DNA of 64,000 nt from Chrysomallon squamiferum (GCA_012295275.1 CM022667.1:7564001-7628000), one strand, 5' to 3'; positions 36,656-59,209 are shown, counted from the stretch's first letter. A program made the numbers and translations. Notes: generated by a model from the sequence alone, not told the origin.

Positions 36656-38321
36656 ATGGTAAGGAACTTATTTTTATCAAACAATACAAAGCTGAAAATA
36701 ATATTATAAATAAAATAAAAATAAAATAAAACATTAAATTAAAATAACACAAAAGCTATAATGAATGAATTAAATGTTAGTGTCGATTCACGCACACTCT
36801 AACGTATTAACGCACAGTTTAACTCCTACATTTTATAATTTATTTGTTATTGTATTTATTTTGCAGAAGTTATCTTTCCTTGTTTGTCTGATGTTCGTCT
36901 CTGGCTCTGCAGCCATGTCCATGTAAGTAAAATTTTTTTTCTTTCATTTTTCATTTAATTTAATTTAATTAATTAATTAATTTTTTTATTTGTATGTGGG
37001 GGAATTGTGCGTTATTATTATTATTGTTGTTATTGTTGTTGTCGCTGTTATCATTATTATTATTATTATTATTATTATTATTATTATTATTATTATTATT
37101 ATTATTATTATTATTATTATTTTATAGCACTGTGATAAATAATTATTTATTATATTTATAGGAGCACCGAATCAACGTTATCCAGATTTTTCGACCGAAA
37201 GACAGTAAGAAATTTGGCACTGTCGGAGGAAAAGCCCATTAAAGGTCAAAATCTCTCGAAAATCAAATTACTTCAGTCTACGTGTGAGCCGTGCCCGTAC
37301 TACGAACAGAACGTGGCTAGTTTTTGTAAAGGTTCCTGCTTTGTGATTGGTCCAGGGAAGTGGAGAATTCGAACAGTGACTTGCGCGTTAGTAACGTTTA
37401 AATCATCTTTCTTTTTGATTTAGGAGTGCGTGTATATTTAAGTGTGTAAGATGGGCAGCAGATACATGTTCTTTGGTACCCGTACATAACCAAAGACTCG
37501 TACAGAAAATACAATTACATACACACATGCGCACACATACTCTATCATTAATATCACTAATTATGGGGTTACTTCCGCTGCCTAGAATGATATTTTTCAT
37601 TTATCAGTTTAACTTCAGCGAAATGAAACATATTTCTTAACGGAACTAAATAAATTGTATTTGCTGTGTTTAAATAATTTATCTGTTAAATGATGTTTAC
37701 CTTTTGATTTTTCTTAAATATACAAATGTAGTAATTGTGGTAATGGTAGTACTAGTAGTAATGCTAGTAGTGTTGGTAGTTGCAGTAGTAATACTAAAGT
37801 AGTGGCACAATCAACAGTAGTGGTAGTAGTAGTAGTACTAAGAGCAGAAGCAGTAATCATAGTAACAGTAGTAACACACTGAGCATTATTATTATTATTA
37901 TTATTGTTATTATTATTATTATTATTATTATTATTATTATTATTATTATTAAGCCATCTCAGTATACTTCAACTTTGAAAAAAGAAAAAGAAATAAAATA
38001 AAATAATAATAAATAAATAAATAAATAAATAAATAAATAAATAAAACGCCACAAAATCCAAATTCGGAGATAATGCCGGTCCGAAGATACACTCACTGAA
38101 CAGTAACAGAAGTGAAACACGTTTAATTTTAAAATTACAGCTACAAGTCTTGTTCTCAGTTCTGTCCCTGTGGAAACAGCTGGTGTCAGGCTGCTGGCTT
38201 GGCGAGGTTTTGGTTTTATGCTTACTGTAAAACACCTTGTGGACACTGGCCCGCTGGCTTCAGCTTCAACTACTACGACTTCCCTCAAGACTGTAAATGT
38301 CGTCAGTCTAAATCCATTTAA
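36656..38321 (+). CDS. Secreted 13-Cys cystine-knot-like precursor, copy A (154 aa)
   Basis: Exons 36656-36658 (ATG|gtaag), 36867-36922, 37162-37386, 38141-38321, all GT-AG and in frame: MKLSFLVCLMFVSGSAAMSMSTESTLSRFFDRKTVRNLALSEEKPIKGQNLSKIKLLQSTCEPCPYYEQNVASFCKGSCFVIGPGKWRIRTVTCAYKSCSQFCPCGNSWCQAAGLARFWFYAYCKTPCGHWPAGFSFNYYDFPQDCKCRQSKSI. AATAAA at 38353. Same exon phases as copies B and C. Confidence 0.88.
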
Positions 38322-38415
38322 AAATTCTGTTTTAACAAACATATTACGAAGAAATAAAGCTCAAGTAATACTAATGTCAGAGTTTTGTTTTCACTGCTTT
38401 AACATTGAATTAACA

Positions 38416-38490
38416 AGGTCAGTGGTTAGAGTGGTGTGATAAACACAACGGTTTCAGGTTCAGTTCTCTTCCGTGCAGCCATTTAAATAA
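38416..38490 (+). mobile_element. Possible degenerate tRNA-derived SINE head
   Basis: A-box-like AGTGGTTAGAG and B-box-like GGTTCAGTTC at tRNA-like spacing; no convincing cloverleaf. Confidence 0.3.
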
Positions 38491-39756
38491 AGCCTGTTCT
38501 AACCATTGCTCCGTGACTACATTTTTTTCTGTAAACCAGAAATTGTGAAGAGAAAAAGAAATCACCAGAAAATCAGTCCCGTCTCCTCCTTCCTCCACGT
38601 TATAAACATTTATTTATTTTGTTTTTTTTTTCTTTCTTTATTTTTTGAGGTTTACTTTCAGCAACTGTTACTGCAAATTTTTCGCTAACACAACTTGAAT
38701 TCCAAACGGTAACAACAATAATTTAAATTAATCTGCCACGGTTTGTTGTACTTTGTTTTATTTGTGAAAATATTGAAAAAAAAAAGCGGGTAAAAAGATC
38801 AAAATCACATTTAGAAATAAATTACAAAATAAAATAAACGACTGAACAACATAATGTCATAATAACTGTGCGTGCGTGCGTGCGTGAGTAAACTTTGCAT
38901 TTCTGACAGGGAAATTACGTAGTTTACACAGTAATGATTTCAAGGCGGTGATTTCGTCTCAAAAACGTTTGAAAATGAAATAAAAGATTGACTTTATTAT
39001 AACCAAAGACTGACTTCACAATACAGGTAAATTAAGCTTATTTAAAATAATTAAAACTATTAACACAACAAAACAACATAAAAGGCGAATTAAATTGAAG
39101 ATTTCTGAGATCGTGTTTGTAAAATTCAGGAGTCTGACATTAATATTAGATATGTGAAATGTCTGTAAGTAATTTAAAACATGGATTTGTAGTCCGGCAG
39201 ATCAGTTCCTTTTTAGTTATATCATTTCCCCCCCAAAGCCAAGTCCTCCTTCTCTTTATTATTGTTATTATTCTCTCTGTATAAACTTATTCTACCAGAC
39301 AATATATTATCTATCTCACTTTAACATACGTTCTTCACCTGTTTAAAACTAAGTTAATTAAAAGCTGTTTTATTATGACAAGTCCGCCATATTTCACAAA
39401 ATAATCAGAACCGATATTTTCACTGATCTCAAATTCTTTTACTCCTTGTTTTTATCATATATTATTCTTATTCTTATTCTTATTATTATTGCTATTGTTG
39501 TTGTTGCTGTTATAATTACTATTAATAACTTTTTTTTATTATTATTGTTGTTGTTGATGTTGTTGTTGTTGTTGTTGTTTTAAGTTGTGTTTAATATCAC
39601 ACTGACACAATCTGTGTTGTTAATCAGCGAAGCGTATCAACATTTTTATGTGTCTTGTTTACAGAACTGTCAGACTAGGATCAAAACAGGTTTTAAAATT
39701 AGATTTATCAAAAATAAAAACATTAAACATTAATTAAGAGGAAAAAAATGTTTTTG

Positions 39757-56535: not shown

Positions 56536-56635
56536 CTGATTGGTCGACACTAACCGGATACAGTTTGAAATTGTCATTGGACAAGAGGGCGCTGAGACTG
56601 CTATAAAAATACAAGATGCTGGTACGAGTAGTCAA
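56536..56635 (+). promoter_or_regulatory. Core promoter of gene C
   Basis: ATTGG at 56539 and 56576, TATAAAA at 56602-56608; near-identical to the gene B promoter. Confidence 0.7.
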
Positions 56636-56695
56636 TACACCGCACACCCCGTTCAAGATTTTCCAGATATTCGCTTGTTCTGTGTATCTGCGACA

Positions 56696-59209
56696 ATGGT
56701 AAGAAATATTTTAATATTTTATAACGTGTAAGTTTAAGTGTTCTTATCTTGGTGTAATTAATTTAGTTTTTGAATCTTTATTAAGCTGTGAAAAAGTTTA
56801 ATCTTAGAATAACAAGAAATAATATTGCTGATATATAGTTAGTTAATAATATGTAAATGATAATTTGCTTTTAATTCATAATAGGTAGCTAGATAGCTAG
56901 ACAGATCGACAGATAAATACACGTGTTTTGTGATATATTATTATTGTTATTATTATTATTATTAGTATTATTATTATTAGTATTATTATTATTATTATTA
57001 TTATTATTATTATTATTATTATTATTATTATTATTATTATTATTATTATTATTATTATTATTATTATTATATTTTCAGAAACTGTCAATTTTTCTTTGTT
57101 TCTTTCTCCTGGCTGCCTGCAGCGCTCTCAGCAAGTAAGTAAAAATTTACAATTTAGTTTAATTAACGTGTGTGTGTGTGTGTGTGTGTGTGTGTGTGTG
57201 TGTCTGTCAGTCTGTATGTGTGTATGTATGTCTGTTACTGTGTATTTGTATTTATGTAACTGTGTACATTATTGTTTCTTTGAATGTTGATATATGTATA
57301 ATGATGGATGGTGATGATGATGTTGATGATGATAATGATAAAAATAATAATAATAATAAGGATGATGAAGATGTTGATGATGATGATGATAATAATTATG
57401 ATGATGGATGGTGATGATAAAAATGTATTTCAGGGAATCACTGAATGCTATGCTGAAATTCTTCACTCCTGAAACTGTAGAAAAGTTGAAGACGTCGACT
57501 GCCAAAATCAGCGTCAAGTCGTTCTTGGCCTAGCAAACTAGGGGAGTCGGCATGTGAGTTGTGTCCGTACAGAACCAAGACCGCCGTGACGTTTTGCAAC
57601 AACATCTGTTACGTCATCACTACCCAACTTCATCCGAACTGTGTCTTGTCTGTGAGTAGCATCTTTGTTATATAAATAACATTTTATAACACATAGTATC
57701 ATGCAAATTAGATTTTATAATACTATATACACAATATATTTTATAACACACAGTATCACATAAGTAATATTTTATAACACATAATGTCATGTGTGTGTGT
57801 TTGTGTGTGTGTGTGTATATATATATATATATATATATATATATATTATATATATCAGCTACTCAGTTATTTTATTTTGTATCAAGTTTTACATAAGACA
57901 TAATTTACTCTCTTTATACTGACTGACACAAACTGATATTAAGAGACAGTAACTGATACAAAGTGGTGATATTAAGAGATAGTAACTGATACAAAGTGAT
58001 GATATTAAGAGATAGTAACTGATACAAAGTGATGATATTAAGAGATAGTATCTGATACAAAGTATGATGTTAAGAGATAGTAACTGATACAAAGTGTTGA
58101 TATTAAGATATAGTAACTGATACAAAGTGATGATATTAAGAGATAGTAACTGATACAAAGTGATGATATTAAGAGATATAACTGATACAAAGTGATGATA
58201 TTAAGATATAGTAACTGATACAAAGTGATGATATTAAGAGATAGTAACTGATACAAAGTGGTGATATTAAGAGATAGTAACTGATACAACTGATACATAG
58301 TGATGATATTAAGATATAGTAACTGATACAAAGTGATGATATTAAGATGTAGTAACTGATACAAAGTGATGATATTAAGATATAGTAACTGATACAAAGT
58401 GATGATATTAAGATATAGTAACTGATACAAAGTGATGATATTAAGATATAGTAACTGATACAAAGTGATGATATTAAGAGATAGTAACTGATACAAAGTG
58501 ATGATATTAAGAGATAGTAACTGATACAAAGTGATGATATTAAGATATAGTAACTGATACAAAGTGATGATATTAAGATATAGTAACTGATACAAAGTGA
58601 TGATATTAAGATATAGTAACTGATACAAAGTGATGATATTAAGATATAGTAACTGATACAAAGTGGTGATATTAAGAGATAGTAACTGATACAAAGTGAT
58701 GATATTAAGAGATAGTAACTGATACAAAGTGATGATGTTAAGAGATAGTAACTGATACAAAGTGATGATGTTAAGAGATAGTAACTGATACAAAGTGATG
58801 ATATTAAGAGATAGTAACTGATACAAAGTGATGATATTAAGAGATAGTAACTGATACAAAGTGGTGATATTAAGAGATAGTAACTGATACAAAGTGGTGA
58901 TATTAAGAGATAGTAATTGATACAAAGTGGTGATATTAAGAGATAGTAACTGATACAAAGTGGTGATATTAAGAGATAGTAACTGATATATAATTTTAAA
59001 TGTACAGATACAGGAGGTGTCATCCGCTGGGCCACTGTGAAAACTGTCATGCTTACTGCCGTCCTACTGGTGACGCAGTATTCTGGTTTTTTGGTTTCTG
59101 TCCACATCCCTGTGGACATTGGCCTGCAGGTTTCAGTTACAACTACGAATACTTCCCACAGGATTGCAAGTGTTACCACCATAAAAAAGTATTCCTGAAA
59201 ACAATTTAA
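56696..59209 (+). pseudogene. Secreted 13-Cys cystine-knot-like precursor, copy C; two +1 insertions in exon 3 (recent pseudogene or assembly error)
   Basis: Exons 56696-56698, 57079-57134, 57434-57651 (218 nt vs 216 in B; extra G at ~57528 gives TAG at 57531-57533; extra C at 57620), 59008-59209. Corrected mature region: SACELCPYRTKTAVTFCNNICYVIIPNFIRTVSCLYRRCHPLGHCENCHAYCRPTGDAVFWFFGFCPHPCGHWPAGFSYNYEYFPQDCKCYHHKKVFLKTI. Confidence 0.8.
57935..58990. repeat. 33-bp minisatellite, ~32 copies, in intron 3 of gene C
   Basis: Unit AGTAACTGATACAAAGTG(A/G)TGATATTAAGA(G/T)AT, ending just before the exon 4 acceptor. Confidence 0.97.

Follow-up and report, generated by a model that had tools for sequence, protein, structure and literature searches.

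Cystine-knot ligands are usually few in number and conserved. Among those described, Spaetzle is presented as a secreted pro-protein which carries the knot at its C-terminus and has an odd cysteine able to dimerise (PMC9427763). Trunk precursors are described as consisting of a signal, an N-terminal part and a cysteine-rich mature peptide (PMC8398477), and gastropod CRNF (Lymnaea/Aplysia) is reported to be 123 aa long, with 11 conserved cysteines in Aplysia (PMC3966541). The window (the whole 64-kb stretch of snail DNA that was analysed) holds a tandem gene family that resembles Spaetzle and the neurotrophins in its predicted secreted pro-protein, its predicted C-terminal cystine knot and an odd cysteine count that possibly permits a covalent dimer. 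Its only relatives found belong to Gigantopelta aegis. No paper was found that joins this species with the cystine knot or names the ids of the relatives, and none of the papers listed in further literature searches, judged by title or abstract start, describes this gene family.

Intact and decayed genes in the window

Genes A and B have open four-exon models with GT-AG boundaries that encode 154 and 148 aa, respectively. In both, exon 1 consists of the ATG only, a hydrophobic segment is encoded by a 56-nt exon 2, and the introns are in phases 0, 2 and 2. Both have the pro-region motif L..FF..TV..L..S and 13 cysteines (C1 to C13) in the mature part, which is aromatic-rich with 12-15 Phe, Trp or Tyr residues in exon 4. 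Gene A has a polyA-type signal at 38353. A secretion signal is predicted from the hydrophobic N-termini of A and B, as well as by a helix at residues 2-20 in the model of a G. aegis homolog, P0005.

The sequence-only reading had described three genes with one architecture and 13 cysteines in every copy. That description holds for A and B but not for C, which is frameshifted. Exon 3 of C is 218 nt versus 216 nt in B; aligned with B it shows one indel near 57528 and another near 57627-57630, and the C model has two frameshifts in this exon and a stop after 52 codons. The 13 cysteines of C are found only across three frames and with altered spacing, C7 being missing and another cysteine gained. 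The C-terminal motif occurs exactly three times in six frames of the whole window, once in each of A, B and C. A listing of RNA runs named none for gene A. One contig from run X1 covers exon 3 of A with no exon difference listed, and the second break in C has thin coverage only, from the same run; runs X2-X4 gave no RNA contig for exon 3 of C, and no RNA contig showed the predicted splice junctions. The gene family is real, but it does not comprise three intact genes.

A tBLASTn search for more paralogs, proposed earlier, revealed five further degenerate copies in the window that had been missed (E 9e-14 to 2e-6), with D, E, G and H on the minus strand and F on the plus strand (Table 1). Remnant H is the head-to-head partner of C. 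In total, the window has two intact copies (A and B) and six broken ones (the frameshifted C and D-H).

Table 1. Positions of exons, remnants and repeats of the gene family, counted from the first letter of the window
Feature	Position	Strand	Evidence
A exon 1 (ATG only)	36656..36658	+	ATG, then GT donor
A exon 2 (56 nt), predicted signal peptide	36867..36922	+	AG/GT bounded; maximum 9-residue hydropathy 2.8
A exon 3, pro-region and C1-C5	37162..37386	+	open frame
A exon 4, C6-C13 and stop	38141..38321	+	open model
Remnant F, fragment of E-type exon 3 with stop	39094..39165	+	tblastn E 2.1e-6 vs E exon 3; alignment
Remnant G, limited to the 5' part of exon 4	42463..42537	-	tblastn E 2e-7; alignment
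5' region of E-type copy, head-to-head with B	43647..43996	-	90% identical to the 5' region of E at 54504-54886
B exon 1 (ATG only)	44186..44188	+	TATA-like box at 44092
B exon 2, predicted signal peptide	44523..44578	+	hydropathy 3.2
B exon 3, pro-region and C1-C5	44901..45116	+	open model
33-bp minisatellite, 33 copies, B intron 3	45460..46554	.	repeat analysis
B exon 4, C6-C13 and stop	46575..46746	+	open model
Pseudogene D exon 4, frameshifted before terminal CxC	50458..50632	-	tblastn E 9e-14
Pseudogene D exon 3 remnant, frameshifted	50878..50963	-	tblastn; alignment
Pseudogene E exon 4, with in-frame stops and an internal deletion	53332..53470	-	tblastn E 5e-8
Pseudogene E exon 3, open, with C1-C5	53708..53863	-	tblastn E 5e-9
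Pseudogene E exon-2-like hydrophobic piece	53961..54012	-	tblastn
Remnant H, 5' part of E-type exon 3	55285..55344	-	tblastn E 6e-10 vs E exon 3
C exon 1 (ATG only)	56696..56698	+	TATA-like box at 56602
C exon 2	57079..57134	+	56/56 nt identical to B
C exon 3, two frameshifts, stop after codon 52	57434..57651	+	compared with B
33-bp minisatellite, 32 copies, C intron 3	57934..58988	.	repeat analysis
C exon 4, open, with 8 Cys at altered spacing	59008..59209	+	open frame

Relatives and the cysteine pattern

The relatives are four uncharacterised proteins of G. aegis, a deep-sea vent snail: XP_041377072.1 (LOC121389487), XP_041358833.1 (LOC121375443), LOC121376510 and LOC121389493. Identity between the window copies and these homologs in exon 4 is 32-49%, and the four full-length homologs are colinear across the predicted exon-3/exon-4 join (hhalign probability 99.2). 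Like the window copies, they have a predicted signal and helical pro-segment, the pattern CEPC...VxC...WF...C...G.W...PQDCxC and ten shared cysteines; unlike them, they lack C3 and C11 and have extra cysteines in a longer pro-region. Other gastropod proteins were absent from the homology search matches, and a word search with exon 4 against longer proteins turned up no relative among 28 candidates. Three of the five HMMER matches (P0004, P0007 and P0008) were dropped as bacterial-type repeat proteins with scores summed over short stretches. The family appears to be lineage-restricted and expanded, as had been proposed, with relatives found only in G. aegis and an array in the window.

Ten cysteine columns are common to A, B and all four homologs. 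C1, C5, C6, C9, C12 and C13, which would represent knot cysteines I-VI in order and include the terminal CxC, are kept throughout this set, and the C9-x13-C10 spacing is common to all family members. The pattern points to a knot formed by C1-C9, C5-C12 and C6-C13, an extra C3-C11 pair and a spare C8. The C3-C11 disulfide is predicted because both cysteines, found as a pair only in the window copies, are missing together from all four homologs, and this lends support to the earlier suggestion of extra disulfides. Homolog P0017 lacks C8 and has an even count of 10 cysteines, while A, B and the other three homologs have odd counts, from which a covalent dimer may be inferred. A two-copy complex prediction for P0005 residues 88-180 scored 0.00 with the protein's own fold uncertain, and has no bearing either way. 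Exons 3 and 4 showed no significant internal repeat when compared with each other (probability 1.0%).

Cleavage at a basic residue before the domain had also been proposed, but B has only Arg-Pro there and A a single Lys. Arg-Pro bonds generally resist trypsin-like and convertase proteases. A furin-type site precedes the domain in two of the four homologs but in neither A nor B, which argues against a conserved processing site.

A probable cystine knot fold

Fold searches were run on P0005, which is 47-49% identical to the window copies in exon 4 and whose model has a pLDDT of 61, with residues 119-134 mostly below 50. In the ESM Atlas, feature scores were 0.90-0.93 and the top ten family-bearing matches all fell in the clan of Spaetzle, IL17, Noggin and NGF, although a one-clan top ten also arises for a third of shuffled proteins; the best Atlas TM was 0.45. 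Comparison with 48,161 chains gave ten matches with Z>=2, nine of them cystine knots and all weak (Z<=3.3). Coagulogen and noggin were joint best at Z 3.3, the former with an rmsd of 6.2 over 124 aligned residues and the latter with an rmsd of 5.8 over 109. In a further structural search, all 24 entries among the matches listed were cystine knots, with no Z reaching 5. The structural alignments of P0005 begin at C1. Spaetzle and NGF chains were not among the structural matches listed, which does not exclude them, and Foldseek returned no match for P0005 at E<=0.001. Exon 4 folded alone (pLDDT 55) yielded no structural match and, in the Atlas, no usable match.

Pfam had no family for the six window exon peptides (E<=10), P0005 or P0006, and a Phage_G match among the four full-length homologs (E 0.0095) was judged spurious. 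Four alignments of the family, searched against PDB sequences, reached only E>=0.54 (aurelin, E 0.69), and a resemblance to aurelin/ShK was dropped. CRASP was rejected as a relative, being described as all-alpha (PMC4596865).

On the basis of the P0005 model, the family likely encodes precursors that are secreted and fold as a growth-factor-type cystine knot. The original assignment to a Spaetzle/neurotrophin-like knot survives at the superfamily level through the matches of P0005. The narrower label does not, since Pfam gave no match and Noggin, IL-17 and coagulogen score equally.

Selection and possible roles

A and B have diverged under purifying selection (pS 0.65, pN 0.28, p=4e-7). The recent duplicates B and C have an excess of amino-acid change in the mature domain, where pN is 0.265 versus a pS of 0.103 (one-sided Fisher p=0.010; p 0.045 for exon 4 alone), in a single pairwise counting test over 80 codons in which one copy, C, is now broken. 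The upstream region of these two genes through intron 2, including the promoter and signal exon, is 97-100% identical. An A-like paralog contig from run X1 differs at nine codons, eight of them amino-acid changing and none affecting a cysteine. The fast amino-acid change suggests that a role in defence or recognition is likely.

The favored reading, to which a probability of roughly 40% is given, is that of an unnamed birth-and-death family of cystine-knot ligands which would bind receptors and signal in host-microbe recognition or defence. The precursor very probably has the predicted layout of a signal peptide, a short helical pro-segment and a two-finger knot (C1-C9, C5-C12 and C6-C13), joined by C4-C10, C2-C7 and C3-C11 disulfides and a free C8. 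C3-C11 would act as a window-specific staple and C8 would be left free for a possible dimer. More tentatively, copies may arise by duplication and often be lost, and the residues exposed on their fingers may change under pressure from a partner that is itself changing, either a microbial antagonist or a receptor, for example one of the Toll-like or cytokine type. The immune role is drawn from the evolutionary pattern only, and the same pattern occurs in reproductive proteins and toxins. G. aegis is described as a symbiont host with many TLRs (PMC7895826), but the account of the related scaly-foot snail in PMC7736800 gives no TLR13 expansion, which counts against an immune role. It is an unlikely extension of the proposal that an unnamed branch of cystine-knot cytokines with its own disulfide set is expanded and diversified by vent gastropods, to serve as endogenous Spaetzle-like ligands for Toll-like receptors that control bacterial symbionts.

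Alternatively, the genes could encode reproductive recognition signals (pheromones, seminal or gamete-surface cystine-knot ligands) whose mature domain diverges fast between copies. This is rather unlikely, although it fits the conserved promoter and signal exon, the fast mature domain and the frequent gene loss, and gastropod gamete-recognition proteins such as abalone lysin do evolve fast; the examples known to us are not cystine knots. Divergent developmental or neurotrophic ligands of the Noggin/Trunk/PTTH type, possibly akin to gastropod CRNF and with incidental tandem copies, are unlikely. Noggin is one of the two joint-best structural matches, with the pro-helices aligned too, and both the Trunk precursor layout and the cysteine count of CRNF favor such ligands, but core developmental ligands do not usually turn over rapidly or show dN>dS. 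The lack of a Noggin Pfam match and of any other gastropod protein among the homology matches also argues against them, as does the separate annotation of G. aegis noggin-2-like and gremlin-2-like genes (PMC7895826 supplement), whose ids were not matched to the homologs.

Structural or clotting components (a coagulogen-like haemolymph gel, mucus, or shell or periostracum matrix) that assemble after proteolysis or by disulfide cross-linking are quite unlikely. Coagulogen covers residues 37-180 of the P0005 model as joint top match, and an aromatic-rich mature part with a spare cysteine would suit assembly, but its Z is low and positive selection is unexpected for such components. Furthermore, the four gene ids and two C-terminal motifs were absent from four peltospirid shell/sclerite proteome supplements, in which ids may differ. 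Another disulfide-rich beta fold, with the structural matches reflecting a generic long hairpin, would account for every structural score lying below the significance marks of the tools; this is very unlikely given that the weak matches are near-unanimously cystine knots by two methods, that the terminal CxC is present and that the alignments start at C1. Toxins or deterrents that the snail releases with its mucus or saliva for defence would fit the signal-pro-hypervariable cysteine-rich layout of venom gene families, which the window family resembles. They are nevertheless highly improbable, as no toxin family matched, aurelin was non-significant and the known relatives come from a snail described as symbiont-hosting (PMC7895826).

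A family that escapes profiles, undergoes tandem birth and death and has a mature domain whose change outpaces that of silent sites makes a candidate recognition system and offers concrete ligands to try against snail Toll-like and cytokine receptors. A fold and a disulfide map, both probable, can now be given for four uncharacterised RefSeq proteins. Should the role prove developmental or structural, the family would be a modest addition to the cystine-knot superfamily.

Comparison with known systems

The knot rings of Spaetzle and NGF are longer than C-x4-C, the predicted ring of the window family. The family further differs from Spaetzle and the neurotrophins in having 10-13 cysteines, a pro-region of ~40 aa and no conserved cleavage site. 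A Spaetzle cluster is the top Atlas structure row for P0005, its TM of 0.45 being under the naming bar, and the rows that contain NGF have feature scores of 0.88-0.90 and a TM of 0.35. Among the six window exon peptides and four full-length homologs, there was no match to the Pfam families Spaetzle (PF16077; E<=10), NGF (PF00243), Noggin (PF05806) or IL17 (PF06083).

In IL-17, the knot pair equivalent to C1/C9 is replaced by Ser, whereas the window family keeps both cysteines and has a pro-segment; the third-ranked Atlas row is a cluster made up mostly of mollusc proteins, 13% of which carry IL17, and IL-17A gave Z 2.0-2.1. The alignment of horseshoe crab coagulogen with P0005 includes the helices, and many extra disulfides are likewise predicted for the window family, but identity is 14% and rmsd 6.2. 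DAN/sclerostin, vWF CTCK, VEGF/PDGF and TGF-beta, with CxGxC knots, populate the weak match lists for P0005. An apparent CxGxC at C3-C4 is present in A, D and E, but was rejected as a DAN/bursicon-type ring; it cannot be a conserved ring because C3 is missing from all four homologs, and B and C lack the Gly. The 11 conserved cysteines of CRNF, compared by description only, equal the count in two of the G. aegis homologs. In Noggin, Noggin-like proteins, Trunk and PTTH, a helical N-terminal part aligns with P0005 together with the knot (102-109 residues, Z 3.0-3.3, rmsd 5.7-5.8). This group has extra cysteines in finger 2 in common with the window family, which is set apart from it by tandem turnover and dN>dS.

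Gene models and relatives

Spliced by coordinates, genes A and B of this family of cysteine-rich, predicted secreted precursors are open and encode 154 and 148 aa, respectively. Each has an ATG-only exon followed by a 56-nt hydrophobic exon, intron phases of 0/2/2 and 13 cysteines in the mature part, and the A-B comparison (pS 0.65, pN 0.28, p=4e-7) identifies both as constrained coding genes. The sequence-only reading was right that a gene family exists here but misdescribed part of it: of the three genes it took to be intact, A and B are open but C is frameshifted in exon 3 (218 nt, two indels relative to B) and stops after codon 52. 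Gene C shares its promoter and the whole of exon 2 with B, and its exon 4 is open. It may be a pseudogene or the product of an assembly error, as coverage of its second break by the DNA contigs of sequencing run X1 is very thin and leaves both readings. A C-like contig in X1 has 8 letter differences from C and an indel where C is first broken, which shows that there are further C-like alleles or paralogs. Further paralogs were indeed found within the window by tblastn with single exon peptides, which recovered five remnants (D-H) that carry deletions, stops or truncations.

An exon-4 profile searched against 1.84 billion representatives gave five matches at E<=0.001, two of which are full-length Gigantopelta aegis homologs (E 5e-8 and 1e-6); the remaining three were dropped as repeat-protein artefacts. 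A second search matched 4 of 1038 candidates, all uncharacterised G. aegis proteins. These four align unbroken across the pro-helix, exon 3 and exon 4, which independently supports the predicted exon-3/exon-4 join. The narrow taxonomic range is the result of two limited searches and falls short of proof of restriction. In a tree on 53-56 exon-4 residues, the four window rows included (A, B, C and D) lie on one side of a branch whose support (91/90) is under the tool's starred mark, in line with a separate expansion. The rank-1 ESM Atlas cluster for P0005, one of the G. aegis homologs, has 65 members of ~200 aa, is echinoderm-dominated, belongs to no Pfam family (feature score 0.93) and may be a wider unnamed relative.

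Fold, disulfides and processing

Fold work was done on P0005 in place of the window's spliced proteins. Its AlphaFold2 model, built from a 9-row alignment, has a pLDDT of 61. It shows a signal helix, pro-helices spanning residues 46-74 and, at 145-175, a hairpin modelled with confidence, while the middle is poor. The cystine knot proposed from sequence drew weak matches that were nearly all knots, but none in Foldseek at E<=0.001, where many of the top ranks were sclerostin, VEGF, vWF CTCK and noggin. VIA-align against 48,161 chains returned 10 at Z>=2. Nine of these are cystine knots, the equal best being coagulogen and noggin at Z 3.3, and all 24 entries listed in a second structural look were cystine knots. 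Atlas feature neighbours scored 0.90-0.93, the clusters after rank 1 carrying Spaetzle (22%), IL17 (13%), Noggin (53%) or NGF; the top structural row was a Spaetzle cluster at TM 0.45, below the bar. These scores are individually weak, and it is because they agree with one another that the family is predicted, with a probability of roughly 0.85, to have a cystine-knot fold.

Numbering the mature-domain cysteines in order, C1, C2, C4, C5, C6, C7, C9, C10, C12 and C13 are common to A, B and all four homologs, whereas C3 and C11 are jointly absent from all four and C8 is absent from P0017, a homolog which keeps ten cysteines. In several structural alignments the first aligned model residue is 92 (C1), paired with VEGF-A 26 and VEGF-C 131, which we take to be the first knot cysteines; towards the C-terminus the register may be shifted by two. 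The simplest disulfide map would have knot bonds C1-C9, C5-C12 and C6-C13 with a C-x4-C ring, additional bonds C4-C10 and C2-C7, a window-specific C3-C11 bond, and C8 spare, through which a dimer is possible. A CxGxC ring at C3-C4 is ruled out by that map, and C3 is missing in the four homologs.

The cleavage previously placed at a basic residue before the domain was not supported: B's candidate is Arg-Pro and neither A nor B has a furin-type site there; two of the four homologs have one directly before the domain. In the window proteins the cut may lie at another site, or the helices may be retained, as they are in noggin. A trypsin-like protease cuts Spaetzle at the pro/knot junction, and Spaetzle is a covalent dimer (PMC9427763).

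Duplication, selection and genomic setting

Both B and C are preceded, at a distance of ~200-550 nt, by sequence 90-91% identical to the 5' region of remnant E, suggesting that the duplicated unit was a divergent head-to-head pair of one E-type and one B-type gene. A shared 33-bp minisatellite could promote unequal crossing-over in the cluster. Contigs of X1, at high depth, and of the RNA-library run X2 have a 55-nt back-joint within the tail of exon 4, which suggests that another part of the genome holds a tandem repeat of an exon fragment.

Features of the window by position
Feature	Position	Strand	Remarks
Rhodopsin-type GPCR, single exon	198-1409	+	~400 aa; Pfam 7tm_1 E 5e-22; left of cluster
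RecQ-type helicase, multi-exon	~13700-28500	-	one exon matches Pfam Helicase_C, E 2e-18; left of cluster
GMP reductase, multi-exon	~29600-33015	+	head-to-head with helicase; left of cluster
55-nt back-joint	38236-38290		exon-4 tail
33-bp minisatellite	40921-41112, 45460-46554, 52460-52636, 57934-58988		four occurrences, including intron 3 of B and of C
E-type 5' region	43647-43996, 54504-54886, ~56250-56490	-	present again immediately 5' of B and C
Peptide remnants	48380-48910		two, short, opposite orientations
65-bp tandem repeat	63283-63994		11 copies; extends to window end

Genes B and C are 99% identical over the upstream 200 nt, 97% at the start of intron 1, 100% in exon 2 and 98% in intron 2, with 80-94% in other non-coding stretches and 77-79% in the mature exons. 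Their exon-4 protein identity (50%) is below that of A and B (66%), a much older pair. Over 80 mature codons B and C have pN 0.265 and pS 0.103 (one-sided p=0.010, by pairwise counting on few codons in one test). Since neutral decay would yield about equal pN and pS, this excess points to diversifying selection on the mature domain, preceding or independent of C's breakage. Run X1 also contains a contig from an A-like paralog, in which eight of nine differing codons change the amino acid, with cysteines unaffected. The depth of this contig is 523, compared with 40 for the one that covers A. This hints at further copies elsewhere, with the tool's warning that depth is not copy number.

The DNA of the window is AT-rich and of animal type, and the homologs suggest that it comes from a gastropod related to Gigantopelta. 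The exact GPCR sequence is absent from the protein collection searched, the helicase is presumably RECQL4-like, and the opposed peptide remnants show a possible resemblance to a Mutator-type transposase C-terminus.

Expression

In X2, five contigs cover the 3' part of exon 4 and derive from a paralog (four listed differences, three non-synonymous); runs X3 and X4 gave no contigs there, and no splice junctions were seen in RNA contigs. One X2 contig shares the back-joint with X1 DNA contigs, and the X2 signal may thus stem from carried-over DNA or from a decayed copy. The X2 contigs are only a hint of family expression.

Family placement and function

The accessible parts of PMC11871041 (including 4 supplements searched), PMC6660194, PMC9071555, PMC3966541, PMC9427763, PMC4596865, PMC8398477, PMC6425005, PMC7895826 (including 10 supplements searched) and PMC7736800 do not describe the family. 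Searches by organism plus fold and by protein ids returned no paper, with most subscription journals outside their coverage.

Predicted secretion, a ligand fold, gene turnover and fast finger evolution would together fit the binding of a changing partner. Defence or host-microbe signalling is tentatively ranked first, and G. aegis has two endosymbionts and many TLRs (PMC7895826), which gives context for that role. Reproductive recognition ranks lower, followed by a developmental or neurotrophic role and then a clot or matrix role; a toxin comes last. The Pfam profiles of the named ligand families Spaetzle, NGF, Noggin and IL-17 gave no match, and the family should not be placed with Spaetzle or the neurotrophins; gastropod CRNF may be akin to it. 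It is in architecture that the family is likened to a ligand of the Spaetzle/Noggin/IL-17 grade.
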